From contig CP000067.1 of NCBI GenBank assembly GCA_000002445.1, positions 896,001 to 960,000 of the forward strand: DNA of 64,000 nucleotides. Reading direction: 5' to 3'. The position numbers and the translations under genes are program-made. Source of the stretch: Trypanosoma brucei. Taxonomy: Eukaryota. The notes under the pieces were generated by a model. The model saw nothing but the letters and a program-made list of their open reading frames with translations. It did no database searches and had not been told where the DNA came from. Below are positions 6,579 to 30,454 of this stretch, piece by piece (position 1 is the first letter of the stretch; each line of letters begins with the position of its first letter).

Positions 6579-7130
6579 CTACAGTTCCTCTAAATACATA
6601 CACATCTCGTTCAAAAATGCTGCCCAGCTGAGAAGGGCAAAGAACTGGGCTATGAGACTCCCCAAGTAAACGGCGCAGGAAGTCACTAGCAGGTAAAACC
6701 CACAGCACAACTTGAAAACACCCTTCAGAGGCTTTTTGCCAGACCCTCCGTCGTCACTGCAGAAGCCAACGAAGTACTCCACAGACATAATTGCGGTGCA
6801 GAGTGCCATGAGTAGGAAGGCGATGAAAGAAAAGCATGGTGACAGGCACATGAGGAAAGCCATCCTCCCTCGTAAAATGGTAAGAATAACAACAATGAAA
6901 GCAATGAATCCAATGACAGAGGAAGTGACAACACTCCCGCGGACCAAATTGAAATACACAGTGTTCCTGAAGCATGAATCCTTACCTGTCGATGACGCTT
7001 GTCCCACCTCGAAAAGATAAATCGTTTTATAGCCCGTTGCACGGCCAAAAATAGGAGAGAAACACGCGCAACCAGCTAAAATAAAGGCACAGAGCGTCAG
7101 CAATAAAGAGAGTACGCCGAAAAAGATCAT
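6579..7130 (-). CDS. Amastin-like small 4-TM surface protein, paralog 1
   Basis: 183 aa with four hydrophobic segments and a Cys-rich first loop. Paralogous to 8574..9104 and 10430..10966. Size and topology match the kinetoplastid amastin family. Confidence 0.55.
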   Translation of the reverse strand: MIFFGVLSLLLTLCAFILAGCACFSPIFGRATGYKTIYLFEVGQASSTGKDSCFRNTVYFNLVRGSVVTSSVIGFIAFIVVILTILRGRMAFLMCLSPCFSFIAFLLMALCTAIMSVEYFVGFCSDDGGSGKKPLKGVFKLCCGFYLLVTSCAVYLGSLIAQFFALLSWAAFLNEMCMYLEEL

Positions 7131-7364
7131 GATATCCTTCTTGGTGAAACGACAACTGATAACGAGACTTGTCTTAAGAACTTACACAACTTCCAAATAG
7201 AGCTCAAGAAGAAGAGAAAAGTATTGTGAGTCACGTACAGCAAAGGATCAAAGCAGAGAGAGAGAGAGCGAAAAAGAAAGATTGGGTAACGGCAACAACA
7301 GAAGAAGTGAAACATGTAGAGAAACATGCATGAAAGCCAACGAGGCAATACCAAAAGTGGCCAG

Positions 7365-7799: not shown

Positions 7800-8573
7800 A
7801 TTTAGATTCCTTTACGGCTACGAACAGGTGCAATATCCGCACCTCTCCTCAACTGGCTAGTGGAAGTAGTAAGAGAAATAAGAAACGAAAACAAACAAGT
7901 GAAAGACAAAGAGGAGGAAAAAAAAGTATCAGCACAGAAAAGAGCAACGGGGATGGATCTGCACTAAAAGCAGAGGGGCGCTACATACGGTTAATTTTGT
8001 CGCACCCGATACACACACCCACTTGACTGGGTGGGTGGGGGGAGGGAGGAAATCCCTCCCCCTCTACGCTACCACCGCACGCACTCCCTAATAGTCGAAA
8101 AAAAAAAAATCAGAAACGGCCGTACGGACATTTATTCTCACAAAACCATCGCAACACGCCAGTCAGGTCAGGCACGAGTGGCCGCAAAAATAGAATGCAC
8201 TTCATAAAGTGAAAAATAACTGAACATAAAGAAATAGACACGAACGAAATTAAATACGGAAAAGTAATAACCAACCTTGGCTGATCAACTTGAAGAAACG
8301 AAAGTTGCTTAAATCAGCCACTAATGACAGGGGGAAAGGTAGTCGCTAAAAGTGTAGTATATAAATACGAAGGAATAGAACATTTAAAGAAAACACCAGA
8401 GTGGTGTGAACTGACCAAAATAAGAAATAACATATTCACGTCCGCTGTTGCACAAGGTGAAACTGGAAAGTAAGCACCACTTCATCGCATCTCCACGCGA
8501 CGCCGTGCAGAAAAAAATAAATAAATAAATGTAGTTCGTTCGAGCTGCCGTAATGCAACCGTATATGTGGCTA

Positions 8574-9104: not shown

Positions 9105-9339
9105 TCTGAATATTCCTGGTGAAACGACAACTGATAACGAGGCTTGTCTTAAGAACTTACACAACTTCCAAATAGAGCTCAAGAAGAAGAGAAAAGTATT
9201 GTGAGTCACGTACAGCAAAGGATCAAAGCAGAGAGAGAGAGAGCGAAAAAGAAAGATTGGATAACGGCAACAACAGAAGAAGTGAAACATGTAGAGAAAC
9301 ATGCATGAAAGCCAACGAGGCAATACCAAAAGTGGCCAG

Positions 9340-9774
9340 TCAGATGTTTGTGTAGCGCTCGTCCACAGGCCTGTCGAAATCCACATCCAATTCACAGATC
9401 CGCCAGTCCTCGTACGTATTGTCTGGAAGCACACGCCGAATAATGAGCGGAATGACACCTTCACGGAGCTCTTTCTGCGCAATAGTCAACGGGTCCGTCT
9501 CACCCTCCAATGCAACTAACACAGGAGCATTCATACTAATCTGCAATGCACGTGTCCCAAGGATGCGGGCCCTCTCGTATTTCGTCAGCACCGGAGCCGT
9601 CACGCGATCTCTGTCATCACGCCGTTTCGCTGAACCACGCACAGGTGCAGGACCAGACACAACAACACCCGCACCCGCATCACTTCGCTCATCGTCACTT
9701 TGCGCCACGCTCTCATGCTCATCACCAATGCTCAAACTCAGTCGATCAACTTCATCCTCATCACGCTCAGACAT
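9340..9774 (-). CDS. RPB6: RPB6 (RPABC2), copy 2, identical protein to copy 1
   Basis: Same 144-aa protein as 7365..7799. It lies within a 1975-bp tandem unit. Confidence 0.85.
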
Positions 9775-10429
9775 ATTTAGATTCCTTTACGGCTACGAAC
9801 AGGTGCAATATCCGCACCTCTCCTCAACTGGCTAGTGGAAGTAGTAAGAGAAATAAGAAACGAAAACAAACAAGTGAAAGACAAAGAGGAGAAAAAAAAA
9901 GTATCAGCACAGAAAAGAGCAACGGGGATGGATCTGCACTAAAAGCAGAGGGGCGCTACATACGGTTAATTTCGTCGCACCACGCCTTATTATATAAATA
10001 TACCAGGTAAGAATAACCCTAAGTCACCACATAGCGTACAAAGTGGTAATTCTAACAGAAAGGGATGAACCAGAAACTTATCTTGCCCACAGCGTAAAAG
10101 AAATGTGAGGGAACACGAAACGGAGGAGAGTGACAACGAAGTTTAACAGCTGTTTTCGGAAACATCTACGTAAAATAAATAAATGAAATAAGTAAAATCG
10201 ATATCTGTATATTCTCGTGTTGCAGCTTAGGAAAGATGAACAAAAAACCTGGGAATAGGAAATACGTACAGATAGAAAAATAAAAATAAAAAACGTTCGT
10301 TCACGACCGCAATTGTATAGGAAAAAATAAGAAAATAGTCACTACCACGCCGCGTACCTGCAGAACCTTCAGTGTCATGGGAAGGAATGAGGCCGCTCGA
10401 GAATGTCAACGCAGCTGCTTAAATGTCCG

Positions 10430-10966
10430 CTAAAGGCAACAGTGCGTGATTGTGGTTAACAAGTATAGAGCGACAGCGGCGCAAAGAAGATATGAACCGA
10501 CATCAATTTTAAAACCACGTTCCTTGAACGGGGCGTACTTGTCGCGCAGTTTCGGATCGCCTTGGCAGTAACCTCTCAAATAACCGAGAGTAACGAGTCC
10601 AATACAAGTTATTGCACCCAGAAGAGAAAAAAAGACCAGCGATAAAGAGACAGCCTTCAAGTGCTTCATTTTTTTTCCGCAGGCAACCACACCACAGAGA
10701 AATAGAAGAGAAATGAGTCCAACTGCGGCAGCCGCTGCGACAGCGCCCATACTGACCTGAAAGTATACACTGTACTCGTAGCATTCACTCTCCCGGACAC
10801 TTGTCTTGCTTTCTGTACTCGCAGTTTTTTCCATGTAGTACCATAGGGTTTGGATCGCTTCCTTTGTTTCATTCTTCATGCGAAAAACGGGGAAGATAAT
10901 CGTACACACTGAAGTACTGGCACCCAGTAGAGTCATTAGTATTGTCAAACAGCCGCAACACAGCAT
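10430..10966 (-). CDS. Amastin-like small 4-TM surface protein, paralog 3 (more diverged)
   Basis: 178 aa. Shares FPVFRMKNETKEAIQTLWYYMEK and the C-terminal GFKIDVGSYLL…CCL motifs with paralog 2. ATG verified. Confidence 0.55.
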   Translation of the reverse strand: MLCCGCLTILMTLLGASTSVCTIIFPVFRMKNETKEAIQTLWYYMEKTASTESKTSVRESECYEYSVYFQVSMGAVAAAAAVGLISLLFLCGVVACGKKMKHLKAVSLSLVFFSLLGAITCIGLVTLGYLRGYCQGDPKLRDKYAPFKERGFKIDVGSYLLCAAVALYLLTTITHCCL

Positions 10967-11281
10967 GTTTCCTCCACCGGTTAAACGACAACTGATAACG
11001 AGGCTTGTCTTAAGAACTTACACAACTTCCAAATAGAGCTCAAGAAGAAGAGAAAAGTATTGTGAGTCACGTACAGCAAAGGATCAAAGCAGAGAGAGAG
11101 AGAGCGAAAAGGAAAGATTGGGTAACGGCAACAACAGAAGAAGTGAAACATGTAGAGAAACGTGCATGAAAGCCAACGAGGCAATACCAAAAGTGGCCAG
11201 TCAGATGTTTGTGTAGCGCTCGTCCACAGGCCTGTCGAAATCCACATCCAATTCACAGATTGGCGTTACCGTAAACGATAG

Positions 11282-13546
11282 CTAACTAACCCAGTTGTTG
11301 GTGCGCTGCAGCACTTCGAGGATCTTCTCCATGTAAACGCGAAACTCCTCGGGACGCATATTTCCATCACTTCCGCTGAAATTTTGTCCCTGAATAATCG
11401 AATGCCCGCCGTACGATTGGTCCCCGTTCGCAACTACAATACGGTCACCACTGCGCTCCTCGTTAAGGTCTTTGCCATTTTTTGGCCTTCTTTGATGGAC
11501 GCAGTACGGTTTTTTAACTAAGAAATGAGCCCGTGAGTCCAAGACGGTTGGCTCGGTAGGGGGTGGCTGGAGTGTTGCGAGAAAAGTCTCTCGGGGCTTA
11601 TGTTCGTAGTCGTAGCGTAAAAGCGCGAGTTGGGTGCGGAGGCCACTAAGTTCGCTTTCCATTGCGTTGTCGCCATAGACACGATAGACTTCATCCAGTA
11701 TGTACTTCCGCTCCTCGGGGGTAAGGTCGTAGCGACGCCGATCCGCCCATAAGAGCAGCTCATCAAGCCATGATGCTTTGAATGTGTTGCAAGAGCGTGT
11801 TGCATACCGATACAGTTCCAGTAGCTTGGGGGACTCAGTGCGCAAGTATACCTTCATCAGCCGGGACACGATGCGGGAACTGAATGGAATCCCTTTTTCA
11901 CTGACAGCCCGAGAAACCTCGCCTGCACCACCACCGGGATCTGTAGAATTGTGAGCATGTTGAAGGAGAGCACAGAAATAAACCTCCTCATTAGAATGGG
12001 TCAGGAGTAACTCACGACATGGTCGAAGGTATTCCTCTTCAAAGCGAGGAACCTGACATTTCGACAAGGCAAGAAGAGAAGTTTGCAGCAAATATTCATT
12101 GCCACGGCGGTCCTCCACGCGGGTGGCGTCGGACAGCGCGTCCTTAGCCTGCACAAAAGCGCCGAGAGCCACATCTGCCGCCCTCATCTCTCCTGCTGCA
12201 ATAAGTACAATGCTCCATACGCTAATGCTTAGCTTCTCCCCACAGCGTAGCATTGCTCGTGCGGTGAAAACAATCTTTCTGTTATCCTTTGCCGCATGCA
12301 ATACAGTGAGAAGTTGAAAGAAGAGGTAGTCGGAAACGCCCTCCATTATTTTCTCACATTCACCAACTGCACGGAAATCTTGCCCATCTGCGGCTGTTCC
12401 GGATCGCATCGCACGCGAGCGATGCCCCAAAAGAACATCACAGCCCACACTCTCCACACCAAGGCGGGACCCAACTTCATCAAAGTAATGTAACGCCTCG
12501 TGGACGTGCTGCCCCGCCCTGCAGGTTGCAATAAGGGTAGCGTAGAACCATTGTTCTTCGGATATTACCCCATGATCAACGCGAGTAGCGCCATTTGCAC
12601 TTCCGCCGTAGGAGACCTCACCACTACCAGTGTCACTGGTGGTGATACTCAAATTGGAGCCGCCTTCTTCCGTCAAGTTCGTGGTGCCACATCCTCTACG
12701 AAGGAAGCCGCGTCGAAGGCAGAAGCGAAAGAAAAGCATTTCCCCCTCGTCTCCGCATGATGCATACTGCACAAACCGCCTAACTGTGTATATGGCATCT
12801 TGCACACTGAGCTCCCGGGAGGCCTCGGGGTATAGAACTGCAATGTACTCCTTAAATATGTACGCGGCATCTTGAAGGGCTTGTTTAGCATCAACAGAGC
12901 GCGCTTTTTCAAGATGTGCGACAATGCAAACACAGCGCCAGAAGGTGCGGGCCAACGAAAATGAACTCATCACCTCCCAGCCAAGCGAGGGTTCGTGCTG
13001 GAGGTGCTTCATGCAGTGGGCTCCCAAACGGACCAAATCACTTGTACTTCCGAGGCTGTAGGCACTGTCCACAACGGAATCGGAGACGGCGAAGCTACCC
13101 GCCACGCTATTAGCCTCAGCCATAGAGGAAGAGCACACGAGGTTCGCACGACCATAGTAAATTGCAAGACAGAGTTCGTGCAGACCCGCCACGTGTGCCA
13201 ACTGCCCATACTCACGCACACACTTGTAGCTCACCTCCGCTAACCGTCGGCTAAGAAGCTCAGAAACGTGTGCGTGGACTGCCGCGGTCTGACTTGGGTC
13301 AAAATTGGTTCGACTGAAACGATGTAAACGGCGACTGAACTCCTCTGTTGAGAGGAAGGTTAATTCTTTTGCCATGTGTCTGTACGCCTCCGTGCTTGTG
13401 TCGACATGAACCATTGTTTTTGCGCCCACACGCGCTGCTAACGGGGTGACTCCAACGCCGCTAACACTCCTGATGGTATTTTTCCCGCTTCCATACTTGA
13501 AAACTGGCAGCACACTCGCGACGTGTGTAAAGAACCGACTCCTCAT
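11282..13546 (-). CDS. Hypothetical 754-aa protein, helical-repeat rich; N-terminus resembles a mitochondrial presequence (MRSRFFTHVASVLPVFKYGSGKNTIRS)
   Basis: Long ATG-initiated ORF with no identifiable catalytic motifs. Repeated Leu/Ala-rich helical segments are compatible with a PPR/TPR-like organisation. This is inference only. Confidence 0.45.
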   Translation of the reverse strand: MRSRFFTHVASVLPVFKYGSGKNTIRSVSGVGVTPLAARVGAKTMVHVDTSTEAYRHMAKELTFLSTEEFSRRLHRFSRTNFDPSQTAAVHAHVSELLSRRLAEVSYKCVREYGQLAHVAGLHELCLAIYYGRANLVCSSSMAEANSVAGSFAVSDSVVDSAYSLGSTSDLVRLGAHCMKHLQHEPSLGWEVMSSFSLARTFWRCVCIVAHLEKARSVDAKQALQDAAYIFKEYIAVLYPEASRELSVQDAIYTVRRFVQYASCGDEGEMLFFRFCLRRGFLRRGCGTTNLTEEGGSNLSITTSDTGSGEVSYGGSANGATRVDHGVISEEQWFYATLIATCRAGQHVHEALHYFDEVGSRLGVESVGCDVLLGHRSRAMRSGTAADGQDFRAVGECEKIMEGVSDYLFFQLLTVLHAAKDNRKIVFTARAMLRCGEKLSISVWSIVLIAAGEMRAADVALGAFVQAKDALSDATRVEDRRGNEYLLQTSLLALSKCQVPRFEEEYLRPCRELLLTHSNEEVYFCALLQHAHNSTDPGGGAGEVSRAVSEKGIPFSSRIVSRLMKVYLRTESPKLLELYRYATRSCNTFKASWLDELLLWADRRRYDLTPEERKYILDEVYRVYGDNAMESELSGLRTQLALLRYDYEHKPRETFLATLQPPPTEPTVLDSRAHFLVKKPYCVHQRRPKNGKDLNEERSGDRIVVANGDQSYGGHSIIQGQNFSGSDGNMRPEEFRVYMEKILEVLQRTNNWVS

Positions 13547-14084
13547 GGTGTATACTTGCGGCCTTCAGAATGGGGGTTTGTGCGTGTTTAACTCAACTCA
13601 CAGACGCCAAACAAACACTTTCTCTATAGGCATGCTCTGCTCTCATAGTGTGCGATTTAGAGGCCGCCGCGTGAAGAGGAAGTGGAAGGGTGGTAGGAAC
13701 AAAAACGGAAGGTTGTAAAAGCGTTGGAAAGGGGGGGAAAAGACTTACAGATACTAGTCAACACTCATGGAAAAAGAGATAGAGAGGGACATAAGAAAAG
13801 CACACAATCGATCAAAACAAACGCGTGCCGCCAGAGAGAATCAACGCCCACCCTGAAAGCTCACATGCTGCGGGTGGGCAACTCAGCATCACATAAAAGA
13901 AAAGGGAACCGGAGGATGCAACGGAACTAAACAATATGTCCCTGGCTCAAAGCCTAGTATGCCAGGCATTTGCACCCCCTCCACCACTGTTCCTGCCTTC
14001 GACTTCAGCGCTGTCACGCCTACATCTCGACAGCACCGCGCATACTTCCCTTCCTCTCTTCCCGCACCGCTGCCGCATGAGAGT

Positions 14085-17573: not shown

Positions 17574-18554
17574 TTAATCGTATTGTGGTCTAAATATCTC
17601 AAAGCGGCACTTACAGTTTTCGTCCATAATCATCATAGCACCGCTGTTAGTAAACTCACCGCAGTAATTCGAGGCGCTGAAAATGGTTACAAGCTGCCGT
17701 CCCGCAAAAAATTGGTAACCTTTATCAACAACCTGGTGAGCGCGGAGAACAACGTCAATATCAAGCCTTTCACATGTTTCCTTAACGATGTCTTCCCCAA
17801 ACGTGTAGCTGACACCGCGCTCACTCTCCATCCAACCACTTCCCGCCTCCTCGGGATCAGCCCAGAGCAGATCACACGCAAGTCCGGTGTCAGGAACGAT
17901 AAGTGGGCGCTCGATCCTCTCAATCTGTCGTAAGTTGCGTAGGTCCGGGCTCAGACCACCGTGCATGCAGAGTGCAATGTCATCAATGAGCGCAGCAATC
18001 GGCAAACAATTGAACACATCAGTGAACTCCTTGAATAGTTTCACTGAAAAACGCCGCTTCACCTCATCAAAGAAACCGTATATCCTGCAGATGCTGTCGG
18101 ATTCATGATTGCCACGAAGAACACACATGCCGTCAGGGTACAGGATCTTCAATCCCAGAAGCACAACAATCACCTCCGTCCCATGCTTCCCACGATCTAC
18201 GTAATCGCCTAAAAACAGGTAGTTCGTTGCGGGAGGCATCCCACCGGCACGGAATATCTCTACAAGATCACCAATTTGGCCATGAATGTCTCCACAGACG
18301 TTGATCGGAGCCTGCAGTCGAACCAGCATGGGTTGGGCCATGAGGATGGGCCGAACAAGTCGGAGAATGGTGCTTATTATTTGGCCATCCAGCAACTCCT
18401 GGGCTGATTGCCAATCTTTCAGGATTGATTCCACTAGACGCTGAATGGTTTCTCTGTCACGATTAGAAGGGTCTGGCCGAGCTCCGTGGGACCACCGCCC
18501 AGATTGTGCCTCAGACGAATTGGTACGTCCCCGTTTCCGCACAATAGTCGACAT
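17574..18554 (-). CDS. Ser/Thr protein phosphatase, PPP family (PP1-like, divergent, with N-terminal extension)
   Basis: Metallophosphatase motifs GDIHGQ, GDYVDRG and GNHE are present, together with [13 protein letters not shown] and a SASNYCGEF-type C-terminus. 326 aa. Confidence 0.85.
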
Positions 18555-19104
18555 CCACAGCTCACACCAAAGTCTCTCCTCGAACAGTTAGAGTCCAAGT
18601 CTAATGTTAAAAAAATTTCACCCAGGGCTGGGAAAAACAGCAAGTCCCACAGTAGACGGCACAAGAAAACCTTGTTGAATGTACCTCACACCTTTGCCGA
18701 ACAGAATGGTCAGTGGGAGAAAAGGCTAGCTGAGTACCTGCTGTTGTGGTCCTTTTTGACGCGGCCTCACCTCACCCTCTGAATGGAGCGCCGTGTCACC
18801 CTAGTATACCTGACTAACATGCACGCAAGTTTAATAAATAATTCGACAGAGGGAAAGGAGCGGAATATTCCAAACAGCATAACAGTACATGGGGCAGCAG
18901 CACGAGGTGGTGTCGAACCTCCACCACCACCCATCTACGACATACACACACATGCACACAGATGCAAACAACTTATCGGATTAGCAGCATTATATAATAT
19001 GGAGAATAAAACCGAAAAAAAAAAATACCATTTCTCCTATTTTCCTCGTATCCCTTAGACCATTTAACTCTTCATCCTATCCCCCTTGCCTCTGGAATGG
19101 GCGA

Positions 19105-19785
19105 CTAGATTTTATTCCAGGCCACAATGTCCATTGACTGTACGGCATCTCCGAAAGACATGATCATCTCCTCCAGGTCATCTCCAGACACCTTATCGTC
19201 CTCAATGACAACCAACTGTTGCAGCTTCTTAACTCCGAACGCAATGGGTACCAGTTTGTGGTCACCCCACAGTAGACCGTCTCTCTTAATTGCATGGAGT
19301 TCCGTGGCAAGCTTTTGCAAATCCACTGTATCATCCCACGGCTTGATGTCAAACAGGATTGATGACTTTGCAATGATAACCTTCTTTGTGCTCTTGGCTG
19401 CGGCATCCTTCTTCTTCTTCGCCTCCAGGGCTGCAAGCTCCTCCTCCGTGGTCTCACCGAAGAGATCGATGTCATCGTCGTCGGCCTCAGCAGCCTTCCT
19501 TGCTGGGGTAGCAGCGGGAGCAGCAGCGGGGGCAGCAGCGGGGGCAGCGACAGGAGCGGCAACAGGGGGCGTGATCTTCACGGGGGCACCCCAGGCAGTG
19601 CGCTCGGCCTCGGTAAAAGAGGCGATATTCTTCACCCAGCGGAATACATTCGTATTGTCTCCACCGAGCAGATCGTTGAATGCCTTTACATCCTCCTCGG
19701 AGGGCTTCACGCCACCCAAAAATAGTTTCCCCTTAAGCTTCTCCTCCAGCTTCCCGCTCTTCACATTGACGTCCTTGATCGACAT
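19105..19785 (-). CDS. EF1B: Translation elongation factor 1-beta, copy 1
   Basis: EF1B guanine-nucleotide-exchange domain (…SILFDIKPWDDTVDLQKLATELHAIKRDGLLWGDHKLVPIAFGVKKLQ…VAWNKI). There is an Ala/Pro-rich linker and an acidic DDDDIDLFG motif. The start was moved from the track 'M' to the in-frame ATG (MSIKDVNVKSG). Confidence 0.9.
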   Translation of the reverse strand: MSIKDVNVKSGKLEEKLKGKLFLGGVKPSEEDVKAFNDLLGGDNTNVFRWVKNIASFTEAERTAWGAPVKITPPVAAPVAAPAAAPAAAPAATPARKAAEADDDDIDLFGETTEEELAALEAKKKKDAAAKSTKKVIIAKSSILFDIKPWDDTVDLQKLATELHAIKRDGLLWGDHKLVPIAFGVKKLQQLVVIEDDKVSGDDLEEMIMSFGDAVQSMDIVAWNKI

Positions 19786-19897
19786 GTCCTTCCCGCTTCG
19801 ATTACACACAAATGAGCACTTGTTGTGGCATTTCACAATAGAAAAAAAAGCAAAGGGTATGAAAACGGGAGAATACATATGATCACACATCCGAAAG

Positions 19898-19933
19898 GCA
19901 GAAAGGGGAAAAAAAAGAAGGAAAGGGAAAGGA
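19898..19933 (-). promoter_or_regulatory. Polypyrimidine tract upstream of EF1B copy 1
   Basis: Plus strand ggcagaaaggggaaaaaaaagaaggaaagggaaagga, about 110-150 nt upstream of the EF1B ATG (19785). Repeated at +2057 for copy 2. Confidence 0.45.
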
Positions 19934-19965
19934 CCTGAACTCCGGGCAGTACTTGTACGTGCGCA

Positions 19966-20277
19966 CTAGACATTGGCAGGTGCATCGACAGGGAAGGCAT
20001 CCAACGTACGAAGGACAAGCTTTGTTTGCTCCAATAGCGCCGCAACAGCTGCACGCAACGCCCGCTCCTGCGTGGCACATAGCCTAGCAAACACCGTCGA
20101 TCGCGCACTATCATCAGCCCATAGCTGAACCTCTCTCGATGTGCCAGGGACAGGTGGTTCTACGCGCAATACCTGCAACATGATGGATGCCACCTCAGGG
20201 TTCGGAAGGGGGAGCCGCAGCACACACTGCAGCAAATCGTGGTCCCCACCCCCTGCATCGGGATCCATACGCCTCAT
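19966..20277 (-). CDS. Small hypothetical protein (about 103 aa), duplicated with the EF1B unit
   Basis: The ORF is retained intact in both copies of the 2057-bp unit. The track start is GTG, so the first ATG was used. No family recognised. It could instead be UTR sequence. Confidence 0.3.
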   Translation of the reverse strand: MRRMDPDAGGGDHDLLQCVLRLPLPNPEVASIMLQVLRVEPPVPGTSREVQLWADDSARSTVFARLCATQERALRAAVAALLEQTKLVLRTLDAFPVDAPANV

Positions 20278-21161
20278 CAGCTTGCGAGTCACACTGATGA
20301 CAAACAGGTAACCAACTACACCTTACGTCACCTCCAGCCCAAAGACACAACAGAGAAGGGAGAAGGTTGGCTGCAGGGAACCACTCATGGCCACTTTCGA
20401 GGGGAGTGATACGGTGGGTAACAGGAAGAGGCTCACACCAAAAAGTGGGGCAAAAGGCACCAAAAACATGGGGGCAACCGCAGTTCCCCCCTTCGTATAA
20501 ACCGCAACCTGGGGCAACCAAGGAAAAGACCCTGCAGATCCTCAGCAAGAGCCAAAATACTGAAAGCGGGCGCGGCATTGATAAACTGCATTCGGTAGTG
20601 TATGTTTTCTAACCTGTGGCCGCATGGGCCTTTGTGCAGGACTAGAAGTGTGGTCTAGCAATACGAGAAACAAACGTCATTTACCACCTTCATTATTGTT
20701 GGGGTACAATAGACGGCACAAGAAAACCTTGTTGAATGTACCTCACACCTTTGCCGAACAGAATGGTCAGTGGGAGAAAAGGCTAGCTGAGTACCTGCTG
20801 TTGTGGTCCTTTTTGACGCGGCCTCACCTCACCCTCTGAATGGAGCGCCGTGTCACCCTAGTATACCTGACTAACATGCACGCAAGTTTAATAAATAATT
20901 CGACAGAGGGAAAGGAGCGGAATATTCCAAACAGCATAACAGTACATGGGGCAGCAGCACGAGGTGGTGTCGAACCTCCACCACCACCCATCTACGACAT
21001 ACACACACATGCACACAGATGCAAACAACTTATCGGATTAGCAGCATTATATAATATGGAGAATAAAACCGAAAAAAAAAAATACCATTTCTCCTATTTT
21101 CCTCGTATCCCTTAGACCATTTAACTCTTCATCCTATCCCCCTTGCCTCTGGAATGGGCGA

Positions 21162-21842
21162 CTAGATTTTATTCCAGGCCACAATGTCCATTGACTGTAC
21201 GGCATCTCCGAAAGACATGATCATCTCCTCCAGGTCATCTCCAGACACCTTATCGTCCTCAATGACAACCAACTGTTGCAGCTTCTTAACTCCGAACGCA
21301 ATGGGTACCAGTTTGTGGTCACCCCACAGTAGACCGTCTCTCTTAATTGCATGGAGTTCCGTGGCAAGCTTTTGCAAATCCACTGTATCATCCCACGGCT
21401 TGATGTCAAACAGGATTGATGACTTTGCAATGATAACCTTCTTTGTGCTCTTGGCTGCGGCATCCTTCTTCTTCTTCGCCTCCAGGGCTGCAAGCTCCTC
21501 CTCCGTGGTCTCACCGAAGAGATCGATGTCATCGTCGTCGGCCTCAGCAGCCTTCTTTGCTGGGGTAGCAGCGGGAGCAGCAGCGGGGGCAGCAGCGGGG
21601 GCAGCGACAGGAGCGGCAACAGGGGGCGTGATCTTCACGGGGGCACCCCAGGCAGTGCGCTCGGCCTCGGTAAAAGAGGCGATATTCTTCACCCAGCGGA
21701 ATACATTCGTATTGTCTCCACCGAGCAGATCGTTGAATGCCTTTACATCCTCCTCGGAGGGCTTCACGCCACCCAAAAATAGTTTCCCCTTAAGCTTCTC
21801 CTCCAGCTTCCCGCTCTTCACATTGACGTCCTTGATCGACAT
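21162..21842 (-). CDS. EF1B: Translation elongation factor 1-beta, copy 2 (one R to K substitution relative to copy 1)
   Basis: Same sequence offset by 2057 bp from copy 1. Confidence 0.9.
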   Translation of the reverse strand: MSIKDVNVKSGKLEEKLKGKLFLGGVKPSEEDVKAFNDLLGGDNTNVFRWVKNIASFTEAERTAWGAPVKITPPVAAPVAAPAAAPAAAPAATPAKKAAEADDDDIDLFGETTEEELAALEAKKKKDAAAKSTKKVIIAKSSILFDIKPWDDTVDLQKLATELHAIKRDGLLWGDHKLVPIAFGVKKLQQLVVIEDDKVSGDDLEEMIMSFGDAVQSMDIVAWNKI

Positions 21843-21954
21843 GTCCTTCCCGCTTCGATTACACACAAATGAGCACTTGTTGTGGCATTTCACAATAGAA
21901 AAAAAAGCAAAGGGTATGAAAACGGGAGAATACATATGATCACACATCCGAAAG

Positions 21955-21990
21955 GCAGAAAGGGGAAAAAAAAGAAGGAAAGGGAAAGGA
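21955..21990 (-). promoter_or_regulatory. Polypyrimidine tract upstream of EF1B copy 2
   Basis: Same sequence as 19898-19933, offset by 2057. Confidence 0.45.
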
Positions 21991-22022
21991 CCTGAACTCC
22001 GGGCAGTACTTGTACGTGCGCA

Positions 22023-22334
22023 CTAGACATTGGCAGGTGCATCGACAGGGAAGGCATCCAACGTACGAAGGACAAGCTTTGTTTGCTCCAATAGCGCCGC
22101 AACAGCTGCACGCAACGCCCGCTCCTGCGTGGCACATAGCCTAGCAAACACCGTCGATCGCGCACTATCATCAGCCCATAGCTGAACCTCTCTCGATGTG
22201 CCAGGGACAGGTGGTTCTACGCGCAATACCTGCAACATGATGGATGCCACCTCAGGGTTCGGAAGGGGGAGCCGCAGCACACACTGCAGCAAATCGTGGT
22301 CCCCACCCCCTGCATCGGGATCCATACGCCTCAT
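22023..22334 (-). CDS. Small hypothetical protein, second copy
   Basis: Identical to 19966..20277, offset by 2057 bp. Confidence 0.3.
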   Translation of the reverse strand: MRRMDPDAGGGDHDLLQCVLRLPLPNPEVASIMLQVLRVEPPVPGTSREVQLWADDSARSTVFARLCATQERALRAAVAALLEQTKLVLRTLDAFPVDAPANV

Positions 22335-22629
22335 CAGCTTGCGAGTCACACTGATGACAAACAGGTAACCAACTACACCTTACGTCACCTCCAGCCCAAA
22401 GACACAACAGAGAAGGGAGAAGGTTGGCTGCAGGGAACCACTCATGGCCACTTTCGAGGGGAGTGATACGGTGGGTAACAGGAAGAGGCTCACACCAAAA
22501 AGTGGGGCAAAAGGCACCAAAAACATGGGGGCAACCGCAGTTCCCCCCTTCGTATAAACCGCAACCTGGGGCAACCAAGGAAAAGACCCTGCAGATCCTC
22601 AGCAAGAGCCAAAATACTGAAAGCGGGCG

Positions 22630-23262
22630 CGGAGAACAACGTCAATATCAAGCCTTTCACATGTTTCCTTAACGATGTCTTCCCCAAACGTGTAGCTGAC
22701 ACCGCGCTCACTCTCCATCCAACCACTTCCCGCCTCCTCGGGATCAGCCCAGAGCAGATCACACGCAAGTCCGGTGTCAGGAACGATAAGTGGGCGCTCG
22801 ATCCTCTCAATCTGTCGTAAGTTGCGTAGGTCCGGGCTCAGACCACCGTGCATGCAGAGTGCAATGTCATCAATGAGCGCAGCAATCGGCAAACAATTGA
22901 ACACATCAGTGAACTCCTTGAATAGTTTCACTGAAAAACGCCGCTTCACCTCATCAAAGAAACCGTATATCCTGCAGATGCTGTCGGATTCATGATTGCC
23001 ACGAAGAACACACATGCCGTCAGGGTACAGGATCTTCAATCCCAGAAGCACAACAATCACCTCCGTCCCATGCTTCCCACGATCTACGTAATCGCCTAAA
23101 AACAGGTAGTTCGTTGCGGGAGGCATCCCACCGGCACGGAATATCTCTACAAGATCACCAATTTGGCCATGAATGTCTCCACAGACGTTGATCGGAGCCT
23201 GCAGTCGAACCAGCATGGGTTGGGCCATGAGGATGGGCCGAACAAGTCGGAGAACGGTGCTG
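22630..23262 (-). pseudogene. Internal fragment of the PP1-like phosphatase gene (about 630 bp, corresponding to about 17738-18382), lacking the N-terminal 57 codons or so and the C-terminal 55 codons or so
   Basis: Near-identical to the middle of 17574..18554. It is joined to the end of EF1B unit 2 at a 6-bp gcgcgg microhomology (22627-22632). It diverges from the parent at about 23262. The track ORF 22599..23228 shows the fused, truncated reading frame. Confidence 0.6.
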
Positions 23263-25727
23263 ATCGTGAGGTCTCCTCTCTAGGAGGTATGGAAATGCTG
23301 TCGCAAACGCACGCGCAGAGGGGACCGAAAAAAAAAAAAGTGAACTTTGTAAAACTTCACCAATGAAATAATAATTTCGTGTGCTCGCCGTAGAAACGGG
23401 CAAACTTTATCCTCTCATACGCGTCATTGCATCATCTTATTACCTTGCATGGTATGTGTGACGGAGCAAGGCTTCGTCGTGCTGTTTCGCCACCAGTGAC
23501 TTAAAGGAGAATACCAGAGGACGAAAACAAAGAAAAGCACAGGAAATTTAGAGAAAACACGTGCTATCTGCATCAGTTATGAAAAAAACGCTGCTTTCCA
23601 GCCAGTTAACACACAAATAATTGTCGCAAAACGCGGACAACCACCAACCTAAATGATTAAGTATAAAAACTTGCGTGCGTGTGCATGCGCATGTATGCGT
23701 TAAATATATGACAACAGGGGCATAAACGTATATGATATTTAACATCGACGTGTTACGCGGTGCCATACGAGGGGGAGAACTGTGCGCGTTGAAGACAATA
23801 TTGAGGAACTCATCGCGCAGAGATGCGAGAAGAAAAAAAAAAAGCAAAACACAAACAACGTAAACTGGACCCTTTTTGTTCCGTTTTCCACCATCTCGTT
23901 ATTTCCCTCCATTTCTTCCCGCAAACAAACTGGACACAAATCAAATTGCTGATGGGCAGTCTCGTCAGGTTTGGTGTGCGGTGTGACGCACAAGAAGTAA
24001 AAACACAAATATCACTTAACACCGTCTTCCTTTCCCTTTCATACTCCCTCGTCATATCTTTCTCAGGTCCTTCCTTCACATTTTCCTCTCCGCATTGCTT
24101 CGTTTCACCTCACCTCGATCACCACTCGCCTCGTCAGCCCCTTTTTTTGTCGCTTCATGTCTCTCCTACACGCACACACACGCAGACACACGTTGGGCCT
24201 GCTCTCCACGCCCTTCTTATATATATATATGAACTCTTCACTCATTCATACCACTTATTCTCCGTACTCTCAAACTTTTTCGTTCCTTTTCCATTTCGAT
24301 TACAACTTACCCCCGCCCGTCGCGCACTCGCAACAGAAGTGGGAAGGAAGAAAAGAATCGACCGATGGCAAAAAGCAGAAAAAAAGAGGGCACCCACTGG
24401 ATGGCGCTGTACAATTAGAGTGAGACAAAAACAAAAACAAGACGAATTATAAAACAGGAATAGCGCTAGAATGAGAAGAATTAAACCTAGAAGAAAAGAA
24501 CACAAAGATAATAAGAAGAGGGGCAAAGGAGGAGAAGAGAGATTTAAAAGAAGGAAAACAAAAAAAAAAGGAAAATGAATGGCTGAAGAATTACCGCCAT
24601 CGCTGCCAGCACTGCCGGTGTCCTTTTTGTGCTGATGGTGGTATTTCTTGCTTCCTTTCTATTACTTCCCTTCCTACCCTTGCCGTTGTGTTTCGGCACG
24701 CCATCCATCACACATCCCTCCGCCCCAACTTCTTTTTCCACGGACACCACTCCTTCCCCTCCCCCCGGCAACCCCGCCAAGTCACAAGACTTCACACACT
24801 GTTATCTGAATGCCCCACAACTCAGACATATGAGTATGTTGTCGGCACACAGCAGTGGTAACGGAGGGTGTGAGTGAGGAGGTCATGGAGGTGAAGGAAA
24901 AATAATTGACCAACTCTACAACGCAACCGTACCCATTATCCCTATACCCACACCGAAAAAAAAAAACGAAAAGGAAAAATTGTAGAGAAACAGGAAGAAC
25001 ATCCATCCCACACACCAATAACATTATAATCCGTTTCACCATTATATGCCCTCACTCTCTCACCTATTCTCGCCGTATTTATACTGGCACCATTTGTCCT
25101 CTCCCTATTCAACTTTCATTTTCATGCATATCATCCCCCACTCTTCACCGGTGCAGTAAACATCAGGAAGAGGTTGGGGAAAGAAAAGCATTGCTCAGGC
25201 GTAACGATATCATAACATGAAAGCAAAAATGGAGAAAACAAGGTGCTACTGCCAATAATGAACATAACAACATATAACTTCACGGAGATACGAAAATGGA
25301 AACTTTAAGAAAAAATGATAAAAACAAACGAATGATGATGGTGGAAATCACTGACACCCATATCAGCACTGTTTGAAGCGGAGGAGGGATAAAAAACATG
25401 TGACATACCGTAACATGTGCAGACGAGTAAAAGGTAGTATAAAGAAAAGTTATGCCCCCGAAGGCAAACAAGAGGGCAACGAACGAAGTAGAGGTGGCTA
25501 CCAATGAGCAAAGCTCAGGGCAACAGAAACTTCTGATAACTAAAAAAAATATTTAAATGGCGTCACCTCCTGTACAACAAGGCCGCTGCAGAGCGTTTGG
25601 CCGATTGCTCTCCTTCCCCATACCCTTGCCCAACAACTCTCCCGCAGTGCATTCAACCATTGCAGACAAACAAAACAACATATCCCATTACTAAATATAC
25701 ACTCACTACGCAACGACTACTTGGCAA

Positions 25728-26612
25728 TCAGCGAGCAGGTATAATGAGAAAGGAACATTGTAACTTCTCGTCAACATTCATGACGGCTGCATCATTGTCA
25801 AATTCACCACAGTAGTTCGGCGCAGAGAAGATGGTCACCAACTGGCGGTTTGCGAAGAAGCCGTAACCACGCTCCATCACTTGGTGAGCACGCACAACAA
25901 GGTCCATATCCACCATATCAAGGAAGTCAGTTACAATGTCTTCCCCAAACAGGTAACTCACACCGCGGTCACTCTCCAGGAAACCCTTTACTTCATCCTC
26001 GGGATCTGCCCACAGCAAGTCACAGAGAATACCTTTGTCAGGCACATCCAGCGGGCGTTCTATTTCATTCACAGAGGCCAATGAAGTCATGTCCGGACTC
26101 AGCCCACCATGCATGCAGATGATTTTCTCGCTCACAACACAGCATACAGGCATAGTGTTAAATACATCTGTGAATGCTTTAAACAGTTTGATGTTATAAC
26201 GTCGCTTTACGTCATCGAAGAAACCGTACATTTTGTTTATGCTCGCACATTCATGATTACCGCGAAGGAGAAAGAAATTCTCCGGATACACAATTTTATA
26301 ACAAAAAAGCAAAGTGATTGTCTCTACGCTGTGTCGGCCACGGTCAACATAGTCACCTAGAAACAGGTAATTTGAATACGGTGGAAATCCACACTTCTCA
26401 AATACGCGCAGCAAGTCGTAGTATTGGCCATGGATATCCCCACAAATCCTCACTGGTGGCGTGATCTCTAGAAGCATGGGCTGTGACATGAATACGTCAC
26501 GAACGGTATTGAGAATTGTCCGTATGTCCTCCTCGCGAATGAGAATTTGCTGTTGCGTTGCACTGCCCTTGGCGCTGAGCATCCGCTCCAGCAGTGTCTG
26601 TACTAGGGTCAT
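25728..26612 (-). CDS. PP1: Ser/Thr protein phosphatase PP1 catalytic subunit, array copy 1 (most diverged)
   Basis: Canonical PP1: [69 protein letters not shown]. 294 aa. ATG verified. Confidence 0.9.
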
Positions 26613-26780
26613 CCTTACGGGCTGGGTTGTCGGGCTAAACTACGCACGTCGATCGGATGCACACTCACACGAGTGCTACTCCTCCCCCGCCTTGCTTTCG
26701 TGTCCCTTAGTTATCGCTCTTGTCTGACGACTTCGATGCTACCTACACACTTGCTAGTAAGCCAGTAACACCTAATTACT

Positions 26781-26818
26781 AAACGAAAGCAAAGAAAGAT
26801 GGAAGGAAAGGGAAAAAG
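26781..26818 (-). promoter_or_regulatory. Polypyrimidine tract upstream of PP1 copy 1 (repeated upstream of copies 2 and 3 at +1921 and +3842)
   Basis: Plus strand aaacgaaagcaaagaaagatggaaggaaagggaaaaag, about 170-200 nt upstream of the ATG at 26612. Confidence 0.4.
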
Positions 26819-27648
26819 TAATTAGAGCGGTGCGGTTTCGCGGTTACAGCAAACATGCCAAGAACCTACGGGGCGTCCCTGCGCAACGGAAGGAACCTCA
26901 AACAGGGGAAGCCCAACAGCAACAGCCAGGGTGACGACTTTTACGTATTCACAACATTGTTCCCGCCTAGACAGCTGTGCCACTGAGTGCAATGACGAGA
27001 GAGCAAAGCTACAGGGGTGAAAATATAAACATGCATAAAAGGGGGGATAGAATATTAGAATATTTATCTGAAACGGTGGCAGGGTGGACAAATCTCAAGC
27101 AGCAAACCCAACCCAAATTTCAAGCCACAGTCCATTTCAGGGTGATGGGTGTACATGAACTCTTTAACATGAGATTACGACAATTCCTCAGACAGCGTAT
27201 TTGTTTCCACTCCTTCATTTTCTCCTCTGAACGCATATGTGGAAATATAAGCCATGACAAAGCACGCTTTTCTTAACGTCAGCCCTCATTACCAGAAAAC
27301 GGAAACACACATGAACATATCTGCAAATGATGGGAGAGTAGATGGGCGGGGGGAACGAATGGTTGAAGGAGCGAATGTATCATCACCGCCGCAAAAAAAC
27401 AAAAAAAAGACAGCGAAAAGTTGCAATTCAACGAGAGCGGGTGTGGAAAAAATGACCCATCCGGGCCTATTGACTGGGAGGTTTAACCTGATAAAGGACC
27501 CTACCCATGCTGCCATTAACTTAAACTCACTTCGTATAACAAACGATTTCTTCGCATTTCATCACGTCACACGCACTATCAAGACCATTCCGTGATTCAC
27601 ACATTGTCGCAGATACAAAAACGTCAGTACCCGACTCCCCGGCCCACA

Positions 27649-28533
27649 TTAGCGAGCTGCAATGATAGCAAAAGAACATTGTAACTTCTCGTCGACATTC
27701 ATGACGGCTGCATCATTGTCAAATTCACCACAATAGTTCGGCGCAGAGAAGATGGTCACCAACTGGCGGTTTGCGAAGAAGCCGTAACCACGCTCCATCA
27801 CTTGGTGAGCACGCACAACAAGGTCCATATCCACCATATCAAGGAAGTCAGTTACAATGTCTTCCCCAAACAGGTAACTCACACCGCGGTCACTCTCCAG
27901 GAAACCTTTTACTTCCTCCTCAGGATCTGCCCACAGCAAGTCACAGAGAATACCTTTGTCAGGCACATCCAGCGGGCGTTCTATTTCGCTTACGCAAGCC
28001 AACGAAGTCATGTCCGGACTCAGCCCACCATGCATGCAGATGATTTTCTCACCTACAACACAGCATACAGGCATAGTGTTAAATACATCTGTGAATGCTT
28101 TAAACAGTTTGGCGTTATAACGTCGCTTTACGTCATCGAAGAAACCGTACATTTTGTTTATGCTCGCACATTCATGATTACCGCGAAGGAGAAAGAAATT
28201 CTCCGGATACACAATTTTATAACAAAAAAGCAAAGTGATTGTCTCTACGCTGTGTCGGCCACGGTCAACATAGTCACCTAGAAACAGGTAATTTGAATAC
28301 GGTGGAAATCCACACTTCTCAAATACGCGCAGCAAGTCGTAGTATTGGCCATGGATATCCCCACAAATCCTCACTGGTGGCGTGATATCTAGCACAACCG
28401 GCTGTGACATGAATACGTCACGAACGGCATTGAGAATTGTCCGTATGTCCTCCTCGCGAATGAGAATTTGCCTTTGAGCCGTGTTTCCCTTGGCGCTGAG
28501 CATCCGCTCCAGCAGTGTCTGTACTAGGGTCAT
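27649..28533 (-). CDS. PP1: PP1 catalytic subunit, array copy 2
   Basis: Same family. Offset by 1921 bp from copy 1. Confidence 0.9.
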
Positions 28534-29569
28534 CCTTACGGGCTGGGTTGTCGGGCTAAACTACGCACGTCGATCGGATGCACACTCACACGAGTGCTAC
28601 TCCTCCCCCGCCTTGCTTTCGTGTCCCTTAGTTATCGCTCTTGTCTGACGACTTCGATGCTACCTACACACTTGCTAGTAAGCCAGTAACACCTAATTAC
28701 TAAACGAAAGCAAAGAAAGATGGAAGGAAAGGGAAAAAGTAATTAGAGCGGTGCGGTTTCGCGGTTACAGCAAACATGCCAAGAACCTACGGGGCGTCCC
28801 TGCGCAACGGAAGGAACCTCAAACAGGGGAAGCCCAACAGCAACAGCCAGGGTGACGACTTTTACGTATTCACAACATTGTTCCCGCCTAGACAGCTGTG
28901 CCACTGAGTGCAATGACGAGAGAGCAAAGCTACAGGGGTGAAAATATAAACATGCATAAAAGGGGGGATAGAATATTAGAATATTTATCTGAAACGGTGG
29001 CAGGGTGGACAAATCTCAAGCAGCAAACCCAACCCAAATTTCAAGCCACAGTCCATTTCAGGGTGATGGGTGTACATGAACTCTTTAACATGAGATTACG
29101 ACAATTCCTCAGACAGCGTATTTGTTTCCACTCCTTCATTTTCTCCTCTGAACGCATATGTGGAAATATAAGCCATGACAAAGCACGCTTTTTTTAACGT
29201 CAGCCCTCATTACCAGAAAACGGAAACACACATGAACATATCTGCAAATGATGGGAGAGTAGATGGGCGGGGGGAACGAATGGTTGAAGGAGCGAATGTA
29301 TCATCACCGCCGCAAAAAAACAAAAAAAAGACAGCGAAAAGTTGCAATTCAACGAGAGCGGGTGTGGAAAAAATGACCCATCCGGGCCTATTGACTGGGA
29401 GGTTTAACCTGATAAAGGACCCTACCCATGCTGCCATTAACTTAAACTCACTTCGTATAACAAACGATTTCTTCGCATTTCATCACGTCACACGCACTAT
29501 CAAGACCATTCCGTGATTCACACATTGTCGCAGATACAAAAACGTCAGTACCCGACTCCCCGGCCCACA

Positions 29570-30454
29570 TTAGCGAGCTGCAATGATAGCAAAAGAACAT
29601 TGTAACTTCTCGTCGACATTCATGACGGCTGCATCATTGTCAAATTCACCACAATAGTTCGGCGCAGAGAAGATGGTCACCAACTGGCGGTTTGCGAAGA
29701 AGCCGTAACCACGCTCCATCACTTGGTGAGCACGCACAACAAGGTCCATATCCACCATATCAAGGAAGTCAGTTACAATGTCTTCCCCAAACAGGTAACT
29801 CACACCGCGGTCACTCTCCAGGAAACCCTTTACTTCCTCCTCAGGATCTGCCCACAGCAAGTCACAGAGAATACCTTTGTCAGGCACATCCAGCGGGCGT
29901 TCTATTTCATTCACGGCAGCCAACGAAGTCATGTCCGGACTCAGCCCACCATGCATGCAGATGATTTTCTCACCTACAACACAGCATACAGGCATAGTGT
30001 TAAATACATCTGTGAATGCTTTAAACAGTTTGATGTTATAACGTCGCTTTACGTCATCGAAGAAACCGTACATTTTGTTTATGCTCGCACATTCATGATT
30101 ACCGCGAAGGAGAAAGAAATTCTCCGGATACACAATTTTATAACAAAAAAGCAAAGTGATTGTCTCTACGCTGTGTCGGCCACGGTCAACATAGTCACCT
30201 AGAAACAGGTAATTTGAATACGGTGGAAATCCACACTTCTCAAATACGCGCAGCAAGTCGTAGTATTGGCCATGGATATCCCCACAAATCCTCACTGGTG
30301 GCGTGATATCTAGCACAACCGGCTGTGACATGAATACGTCACGAACGGCATTGAGAATTGTCCGTATGTCCTCCTCGCGAATGAGAATTTGCCTTTGAGC
30401 CGTGTTTCCCTTGGCGCTGAGCATCCGCTCCAGCAGTGTCTGTACTAGGGTCAT
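29570..30454 (-). CDS. PP1: PP1 catalytic subunit, array copy 3
   Basis: Same family. Offset by 1921 bp from copy 2. Confidence 0.9.

Follow-up and report, generated by a model that had tools for sequence, protein, structure and literature searches.

A truncated copy of the phosphatase gene PP1-7 beside a duplicated Pcc1-EF1beta unit in Trypanosoma brucei

Layout of the locus

The locus described here lies on chromosome 4 of T. brucei TREU927 and was analyzed within a 64,000-nt stretch of DNA (the window), in which all coordinates are given as plus-strand positions. Self-BLAST and base-by-base comparison of the window establish the plus-strand order PP1-7 gene (containing P), U1, E1, S, E2, P' and X (Table 1), which confirms the succession of a complete PP1-like gene, a first EF1B unit, a spacer, a second unit and an internal gene fragment given in a preliminary description of this DNA. 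Several boundaries had to be adjusted. Unit 1 is indeed a repeat, but it extends over 18649-20575 rather than 18650-20590. The spacer is unique within the window as claimed, but its measured length is 130 bp instead of 117 bp. Similarly, an internal PP1-like segment has been copied, but its exact parental bounds are 17740-18374 and not 17738-18382. Each unit formerly described as carrying EF1B also holds a Pcc1 gene (Pfam Pcc1), which had been overlooked.

The complete phosphatase gene, Tb927.4.3560, is named PP1-7 in PMC2175518, and its product matches Pfam Metallophos (3.3e-36) and aligns to solved PP1 structures at ~1e-110. The two Pcc1-EF1beta units differ at 2 of 1927 bp (18652G/20709A and 19499C/21556T; 99.9% identity), and pairwise alignment of the fragment with its parent gives one contiguous 635-bp match with a single mismatch (18368T/23255C; 99.8% identity). 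From position 23262 onward the sequence (X) is unrelated.

Table 1. Features of the PP1-7/Pcc1-EF1beta locus in window coordinates
Feature	Position	Strand	Remarks
PP1-7 (Tb927.4.3560), complete PP1-like gene, fragment donor	17574..18554	-	326 aa; exact match XP_844506/AAZ10947
P, parent segment, PP1-7 codons 61 (phase 0) to 272	17740..18374	-	635-bp repeat with 22627-23261
U1, single-copy segment, PP1-7 codons 1-60 and 94 bp upstream	18375..18648	-	not duplicated
E1, Pcc1-EF1beta unit 1	18649..20575	-	1927-bp repeat
EF1beta CDS of E1	19105..19785	-	226 aa; Pfam EF1_GNE 4.3e-28
Pcc1-like CDS of E1	19966..20277	-	103 aa from ATG; Pfam Pcc1 2.1e-13
Pcc1-like ORF of E1, GTG start at 20292		-	108 aa
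S, unique spacer separating E1 and E2	20576..20705	.	130 bp
E2, Pcc1-EF1beta unit 2	20706..22632	-	1927-bp repeat
EF1beta CDS of E2	21162..21842	-
Pcc1-like CDS of E2	22023..22334	-
Chimeric ORF Tb927.4.3610 (XP_844511, Q585I9)	22599..23228	-	209 aa; exact sequence match
GCGCGG microhomology at E2-P' junction	22627..22632	.	in both parents, 20570-20575 and 17740-17745
P', internal PP1-7 copy, codons 61-272	22627..23261	-	635-bp repeat with P
Polypyrimidine tract and AG, predicted spliced-leader acceptor	23298..23340	-	direct sequence reading

A simple tandem duplication would present two complete head-to-tail copies joined at one novel junction with no extra sequence. The E-S-E segment has instead a period of 2057 bp, of which about 1.94 copies are present, and a single S, and P' lies on the opposite side of E from P, in the orientation of PP1-7, which bears out the earlier view that the layout goes beyond a simple tandem duplication. 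Within the 64-kb window S has no second copy, and comparison there revealed no similarity of S to X, to U1 or to the 3' flank of PP1-7. Parts of this arrangement are known, in that the 209-aa ORF is already annotated as Tb927.4.3610 among eight TbPP1 genes and the EF1beta tandem pair is already published. What is new is the presence of Pcc1 in each unit, the concerted evolution of P and P' and the variation in unit copy number.

Other strains and trypanosomatids

The X-P', P'-E and E-U1 junctions are identical, and their coordinates contiguous, in T. b. gambiense DAL972 and in T. b. equiperdum GCA_003543875. Both assemblies contain P' with the same ends and one E unit each, and S is missing from both loci. 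When the Pcc1 protein was used for an exact look-up of further T. brucei strains, the only match was a contig of T. equiperdum OVI, which shows the order E2-S-E1-U1-P and carries S at 100% identity. The number of Pcc1-EF1beta units differs between strains, and P' and the EF1B duplication are separable, given that two assemblies have P' with a single E unit. In DAL972 the one-unit state could reflect collapse of the repeat during assembly.

It is almost certain that the TREU927 structure itself did not result from mis-joining or collapse of a regular tandem array in the reference, which had been named as the outcome that would overturn the description. Repeats of 0.6-1.9 kb that are 99.8-99.9% identical are of a class that Sanger-era assemblies can mishandle, and the number of units does vary between assemblies. 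However, the junctions are reproduced in three other assemblies, X-P' and P'-E in two independent ones and E2-S-E1 in a third. N runs are absent from all these loci, and a paralog-specific base near the edge of P is conserved across strains.

Comparison of P and P' in three strains uncovers six variable sites, four of which have changed in parallel in both copies within strains. At sites 189, 417 and 529, TREU927 differs from DAL972 and T. b. equiperdum in both P and P', and at site 600 a base specific to T. b. equiperdum is found in both copies, whereas at site 7, at the edge, the two paralogs show a difference that is fixed across the three strains. Paralogs of one lineage therefore carry the same substitutions, and the differences lie between orthologs of different lineages. 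P and P' evolve in concert by gene conversion, and their near-identity is to be attributed to this process rather than to recency. Gene conversion may also act on the E units, as suggested by the OVI E1 unit, which is a mosaic of TREU927 E1 and E2 variants.

The outgroups compared were T. cruzi, T. theileri and T. vivax; neither of two protein searches yielded a locus from T. congolense, which is a closer outgroup. A single Pcc1-EF1B-PP1-like set without any PP1-like fragment is present in T. cruzi and T. theileri. In T. vivax, a PP1-like fragment is located upstream of Pcc1 and EF1B is present in two copies, and this duplication is independent because it involves another part of the gene (codons 1-73 rather than 61-272), has different breakpoints and is 99.8% identical to its own parent. 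Intergenic DNA does not align between species, and S, the terminal part of X and the 5' end of E gave only poly-T or low-complexity matches against the loci of T. cruzi, T. vivax, T. theileri and Leishmania donovani.

These comparisons bear on the suggestion that the fragment is a remnant of a former longer array, in which P' would be the leftover of an upstream full-length PP1-like copy in a (PP1-like + Pcc1 + EF1B)n array reduced by deletions. The T. vivax fragment upstream of Pcc1 and two EF1B copies resembles such a leftover, and the orientation and relative position of P' upstream of Pcc1 are the same. Nevertheless, this history is quite improbable, since the T. vivax fragment is an independent event, no second copy or array exists in T. 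cruzi or T. theileri, and the history would call for one additional duplication and a minimum of two precise deletions. In addition, local alignment against shuffled sequences reveals no residual homology between the flanks of P' and those of the parent gene (z = -0.7 and 0.3), whereas a diverged paralog used as a control yields z = 61, and the breakpoints of P' are accordingly sharp. A processed (retroposed) pseudogene was also considered and rejected, as P' is internal to the coding sequence and no A-run, spliced-leader sequence or flanking direct repeat is found at its ends.

The truncated open reading frame

P' lacks PP1-7 codons 1-60 and 273-326. The chimeric truncated ORF noted earlier exists on the minus strand and consists of M72-A272 of PP1-7 followed by RFQYFGSC* read from E2. 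It keeps GDIHG, GDYVDRG and GNHE (parent positions 88, 116 and 148) as well as H198, and so possesses the signature motifs GDxHG, GDxVDRG and GNHE as these are defined in PMC2175518. The catalytic domain is not full length, as parent residues 1-71 are missing, and the Pfam Metallophos match is partial (profile positions 2-186 of 191) with no STPPase_N match. The parent-derived part stops at A272, one residue short of the metal ligand H273 (RAHQ), which is equivalent to PP1alpha H248 (the offset from PP1alpha numbering is a constant 25). SASNYC (parent position 293; the SAPNYC/beta12-13 region) is likewise absent, with RFQYFGSC* in its place, and the ORF therefore has neither the complete set of metal ligands nor the C-terminal region. 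The protein had been proposed to be a catalytically dead fragment if expressed. Its missing parts are essential to the phosphatase, in keeping with this proposal.

A possible route to expression is provided by a T12 plus CGGTCCCCTCT... tract followed by a first AG at 23299-23298, which is 37 nt upstream of the X-P' junction and 70 nt upstream of the ATG at 23228, with no ATG between. This predicted spliced-leader acceptor might allow an mRNA to be formed from the fragment, and given this good signal and a location within a polycistronic unit, Tb927.4.3610 may be transcribed and trans-spliced. None of the gene identifiers of the locus occurs in the accessible part of the supplement to the spliced-leader-trapping paper PMC2916883. 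The literature searched yielded no expression evidence for the fragment, and the only in-text mention of Tb927.4.3610 was within a 2021 gene list. The searched papers class it with the PP1 family and make no further remark, whereas the sequence reveals a chimera built on a truncated PP1-7.

Most likely, the 209-aa ORF has no function and is simply a by-product. That it is functional and kept by selection, for example as a catalytically inactive PP1 decoy, is highly improbable. All three assemblies with the fragment preserve the full 209-aa frame, a canonical polypyrimidine-AG signal precedes it with no intervening ATG, and several catalytic motifs and H198 are retained. However, the intactness of the frame is fully accounted for by ongoing gene conversion from a working parent, and what is a single-domain fold has lost its first 71 residues, the equivalent of PP1alpha H248, and the SAPNYC loop along with the C-terminal strands. 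Furthermore, the fragment is missing in every outgroup examined, and the searched literature is silent on its expression. Selection, and not gene conversion alone, might conceivably maintain P' across T. brucei subspecies in either of two ways, through a trans-spliced and translated PP1 fragment with a defective metal site that titrates PP1 partners or through an influence of P' on the processing of Pcc1/EF1beta mRNA, although we regard this combined proposal as hardly credible. With respect to such a cis effect, P' is directly upstream of Pcc1, which in some strains is the sole Pcc1 gene.

Origin and meaning of the rearrangement

The hexamer GCGCGG at 22627-22632 was reported to be common to both parents, and base comparison bears this out. 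It is 100% GC, and among 400,000 random junctions between E and PP1-like sequence drawn from the window, microhomology of at least 6 bp arises with P = 0.0017, which is more than chance would supply. The join between E2 and P' is a genuine microhomology junction. Microhomology does not extend to all junctions, as only E2-P' has 6 bp; under the favored reconstruction the X-P' junction has 1 bp of homology and the E2-S junction has 0 bp.

Taken together, the evidence makes it probable that P' arose by a microhomology-primed templated insertion that was later homogenized by gene conversion. Repair of a break or a stalled fork, located upstream of the Pcc1-EF1beta unit in a T. brucei-clade ancestor, would have copied a nearby template, with the GCGCGG at the end of the unit annealing to the identical hexamer inside PP1-7, a few kilobases downstream in the same transcription unit. 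About 629 bp would then have been copied, from codon 272 back to codon 61, and the new end would have been joined to upstream X with 0-1 bp of homology. The outcome would be the truncated PP1-7 copy now known as Tb927.4.3610 (P'), placed directly upstream of Pcc1. After the insertion, gene conversion would have kept P and P', and E1 and E2, nearly identical.

The origin of S affects how the second unit is explained. The favored proposal is that S represents the ancestral upstream flank of the Pcc1-EF1beta unit, with insertion as filler being the alternative. If S is the original flank, the extra material would be a block composed of P' and E2 located between X and S. This block might have been generated in a single event of serial template switching that left three junctions, or by tandem duplication of S+E followed by replacement of the first S with P'. 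The one-unit alleles of DAL972 and GCA_003543875 would then be deletions formed by homologous recombination between E1 and E2. An ancestral S would also mean that the homology of E1 and E2 must end exactly at the P' junction, a coincidence that would need no separate explanation.

Alternatively, P' might first have been inserted upstream of a single unit, as in a DAL972-like ancestor, with the TREU927/OVI unit duplicated later along with a captured 130-bp filler, S. P' accompanies a single unit in two of the four assemblies, the difference between E1 and E2 (2/1927 bp) is below the haplotype divergence of roughly 0.7-1%, as expected of a young duplication, and a mismatch 4 bp from the E2-S boundary could be a junction scar. 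This order of events seems unlikely, although less so than the other alternatives. It requires the left duplication breakpoint to hit the same 6 bp as the older P'-E junction (roughly 6 in 2000 by chance), and it offers no source for S in the window. Moreover, low divergence between E1 and E2 is explained equally well by gene conversion, which is evident for P and P' and for which the OVI mosaic provides an indication in E.

Complex duplications attributed to serial replication slippage or FoSTeS-MMBIR have been described for human genomic disorders. Like these, the T. brucei locus has several duplicated segments reordered in direct orientation over a few kilobases, with breakpoints that show micro- or no homology, and a single event of this type can explain the path from X to P to E to S-E. 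A two-step history of tandem duplication and then templated insertion fits equally well.

The favored insertion can also be compared with repair in T. brucei itself. According to PMC3045614, end joining in this organism is exclusively microhomology-mediated (MMEJ), uses 5-20 bp with GC-rich sequences favored, and proceeds without any observed NHEJ, and in one-sided MMEJ gene conversion tracts of 28-1084 bp are acquired from ectopic templates. The present locus resembles those events in its GC-rich 6-bp junction, which falls within the 5-20 bp range, and in the few hundred base pairs acquired from an ectopic template. It departs from them in that their other end relied on extensive homology and homologous recombination, whereas the second junction here has 0-1 bp. 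Also, the template in this case is on the same chromosome, 2-5 kb away, and the event is natural and fixed. The 1-bp and 0-bp homologies at the other two junctions are unusual for experimentally characterized T. brucei MMEJ and count against the favored reading.

As a partial copy near its parent that remains nearly identical through concerted evolution, P' resembles duplicated, unprocessed, truncated pseudogenes. As in trypanosomatid tandem arrays, where gene dosage substitutes for transcriptional control (a rationale given in PMC2175518), it adjoins housekeeping genes of variable copy number. Unlike such pseudogenes and arrays, P' is internal, has lost both gene ends and sits outside the repeating unit.

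The locus is probably an ordinary scar of DNA repair that leaves current understanding unchanged, and its value is mostly in housekeeping. Tb927.4.3610, which papers on the phosphatome and on phylogeny include among the eight PP1 catalytic subunits of T. brucei, is better treated as a gene fragment or pseudogene, and the DAL972 annotation mislabels its counterpart as EF1-beta. The 99.8% identity of P and P' makes the signals of PP1-7 and Tb927.4.3610 in RNA-seq, RNAi (RIT-seq) and proteomics inseparable except at the junctions. More broadly, several trypanosomatid lineages have independently duplicated the Pcc1-EF1B-PP1-7 locus, and in T. brucei, a species lacking NHEJ, it would represent a clean natural case of microhomology-primed templated insertion, with the gene and its fragment subsequently subject to gene conversion.

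Repeat structure and gene content

Self-BLAST and base-by-base comparison delimit two repeat pairs at the PP1-7 gene (Tb927.4.3560) of T. brucei TREU927. One pair consists of an internal PP1-7 segment (P), which runs from codon 61 (phase 0) to codon 272, and a copied fragment (P') that consequently lacks both ends of the gene, as had been noticed from sequence alone. The other consists of two Pcc1-EF1beta units (E1 and E2) separated by a unique spacer (S). The layout given in the preliminary description, an EF1B duplication joined to a PP1-like fragment at a 6-bp microhomology, is borne out, but its unit-1 end (20590), its spacer length (117 bp) and its parent coordinates require slight correction.

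Coordinates of the repeats and associated features (window positions, except T. vivax)
Feature	Position	Strand	Description
E1	18649-20575		1927-bp repeat with E2, 2 mismatches
E2	20706-22632		1927-bp repeat with E1, 2 mismatches
S	20576-20705		unique spacer, 130 bp
P	17740-18374		635-bp repeat with P', 1 mismatch
P'	22627-23261		635-bp repeat with P, 1 mismatch
GCGCGG	22627-22632		overlap of E2 and P'; found in both parents
Pcc1-domain gene (KEOPS/EKC subunit family)	22023..22334 and 19966..20277	-	Pfam PF09341, 2.1e-13
T. vivax duplicate copies	SOPI01000560 (L006) 9748-11423 and 12221-13896

Every gene in this section of the window is encoded on the minus strand. Along transcription the order is the PP1-4/5/6 array (three 294-aa genes), a 2.4-kb segment (X) in which no gene is called, P', E2, S, E1, PP1-7 and ribosomal protein L13a. 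The ORFs at 17574..18554 (-; 326 aa) and 22599..23228 (-; 209 aa) exactly match T. brucei brucei TREU927 XP_844506 and XP_844511, both on a 1.59-Mb chromosome. They correspond to Tb927.4.3560 (Q585J4) and Tb927.4.3610 (Q585I9), respectively (Jensen et al. 2021 gene list; TriTryp phosphatome paper supplement). Two tandem EF1beta genes were already reported to separate PP1-7 from PP1-4/5/6, and the 209-aa entry is included among the eight TbPP1 genes (PMC2175518). The structure is genuine and unremarkable, and the annotation already contains it.

Two genes rather than one occupy each E unit: a Pcc1-domain gene of 103 aa from its ATG (regions 19966-20292 and 22023-22349, minus strand) and EF1beta (EF1_GNE 4.3e-28), so that Pcc1 is duplicated along with EF1beta in TREU927. 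The Ala/Pro-rich linker of EF1beta (PVAAPVAAPAAAPAAAPAA) is encoded by a 12-nt periodic GCAGC(A/G)GCGGGG repeat (19490-19578 and 21547-21635), beside which an E1/E2 mismatch (19499/21556) creates an R/K difference between the two proteins.

Elsewhere, the PP1-4/5/6 tandem array (25728-30454, minus strand) varies in copy number among assemblies, with 3 copies in TREU927, 2 in T. b. gambiense DAL972 (L001 4688-7492) and at least 4 in a T. b. equiperdum assembly (L002 847-7491). At 44-48 kb, GC and AT skew are both negative and unusually strong within a 1692-aa ORF (44044-49122, minus strand), which is followed by a low-GC stretch (0.38-0.42; 50000-62000) holding the first long plus-strand ORF (58230-61919, 1229 aa). 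A strand switch may be located here, or the polycistronic unit may end here.

Conservation and concerted evolution in the T. brucei clade

In DAL972 and the chromosome-scale T. b. equiperdum assembly, X, P', E, the unique segment carrying PP1-7 codons 1-60, P and the PP1-7 3' end align as one contiguous series with unchanged breakpoints, around a single E unit and without S. A contig (L005) of T. equiperdum OVI (PMC5278650) reads the last 36 bp of E2, S (100% identical), E1, the same unique segment and P. Because the junctions recur in these three loci, none of which contains gaps, the fragment and its junctions are common to the T. brucei clade, and mis-assembly of a regular array is not supported. 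Haplotypes or assemblies differ in carrying either one or two Pcc1-EF1beta units; in one-unit strains the sole Pcc1 copy sits directly downstream of the phosphatase fragment. The 209-aa fragment in DAL972 (CBH10658.1; L001 10001-10630) is annotated "translation elongation factor 1-beta, putative", which appears to be a name-transfer error due to the absent second EF1B unit.

The 635-bp P and P' copies from TREU927, DAL972 and T. b. equiperdum vary at six sites. TREU927 differs from the other two at three of these, and T. b. equiperdum at one, in P and P' alike; at another (codon 63, I/V), which lies 7 bp from the 5' edge, P and P' carry a fixed difference throughout the three strains, and the last is private to T. 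b. equiperdum P'. This pattern indicates that the duplication predates the divergence of these strains, and the 99.8% P/P' identity is due to repeated gene conversion rather than recency. The E1 of OVI, a mosaic of both TREU927 E variants, suggests that gene conversion also acts on E.

Outgroups and the order of events

T. cruzi and T. theileri carry a single unit (PP1 array, Pcc1, EF1B, PP1-like, L13a), and tblastn revealed no PP1-like fragment upstream of Pcc1 in either. Furthermore, the flanks of P' retain no residual similarity to those of P (z = -0.7 and 0.3, versus 61 for a diverged PP1-6 control). Thus, an ancestral (PP1-like + EF1B)n array, of which the locus had alternatively been suggested to be a remnant, is not supported; no such array occurs among the trypanosomatid loci compared.

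Other duplications are present. In T. vivax, a 1676-bp duplication (99.8% identity, period 2473 bp) spans the last 30 Pcc1 codons, EF1B and the first 73 PP1-like codons, in a D-U-D layout resembling the T. brucei E-S-E; it generates an 80-aa N-terminal phosphatase fragment (ORF 11203-11445) upstream of intact Pcc1. T. theileri (L009) has a 257-bp copy of an EF1B N-terminal fragment (7936-8191 = 9188-9444), and L. donovani (L004) two EF1B genes ~6.3 kb apart (306-1025 and 6609-7328). The locus has thus undergone several independent duplications, partial or complete, with differing breakpoints. A PP1 array member of T. theileri is also truncated (L009 4303-4803).

The proposed role of microhomology is supported by GCGCGG, since an overlap of at least 6 bp has a probability of 0.0017 when junctions are sampled at random from the sequences involved (400,000 draws); homology at the other two junctions is 1 bp and 0 bp. 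Chromosomal breaks in T. brucei are repaired by homologous recombination or microhomology-mediated joining, with no NHEJ seen, typically using 5-20 bp with GC-rich tracts favoured; an ectopic template can also supply 28-1084 bp of copied sequence, one end of which is joined through microhomology (PMC3045614). The E/P' junction agrees with this behavior (6 bp of G/C only; 629 bp copied; template 2-5 kb away).

From these observations we infer the whole mechanism. S-E1 would be the original continuous sequence, into which a [P'+E2] block was added between X and S; on this view E1/E2 homology should end exactly at the P' junction, as it does. The block could have arisen by one serial template-switch event (S end to E start; E end to P start via GCGCGG; P end to X), or by tandem [S+E] duplication, after which a templated copy of P took the place of the first S. 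Alleles with a single unit would be products of E1/E2 recombination. The reverse order, with P' first and a later E duplication using S as filler, is less likely: the duplication would have to break at the site of the older junction, and S would need a separate source.

The chimeric reading frame and the recurrence of duplication

The predicted chimeric ORF is present as Tb927.4.3610, comprising PP1-7 M72-A272 followed by RFQYFGSC*. It retains GDIHG, GDYVDRG, GNHE and H198; SASNYC, the C-terminal strands and the first 71 residues of the parent are missing. The parent-derived part stops one residue before H273, the counterpart of PP1alpha metal ligand H248; every motif shows the same numbering offset of 25. 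The suggestion of a dead phosphatase fragment is upheld as regards these losses, and the product is most likely inactive and probably unstable. At 23340-23298, 70 nt upstream of the ATG with no ATG between, a T12-rich polypyrimidine tract leads into an AG, which makes processing into mRNA plausible. Gene conversion accounts for the intact frame in three strains.

The small additions made here are the junction-level anatomy of the locus, the Pcc1 gene within the EF1B unit, the copy-number difference among assemblies, P/P' concerted evolution, and the recurrent duplications, by which the Pcc1-EF1B-PP1-like locus looks like a duplication hotspot in trypanosomatids.
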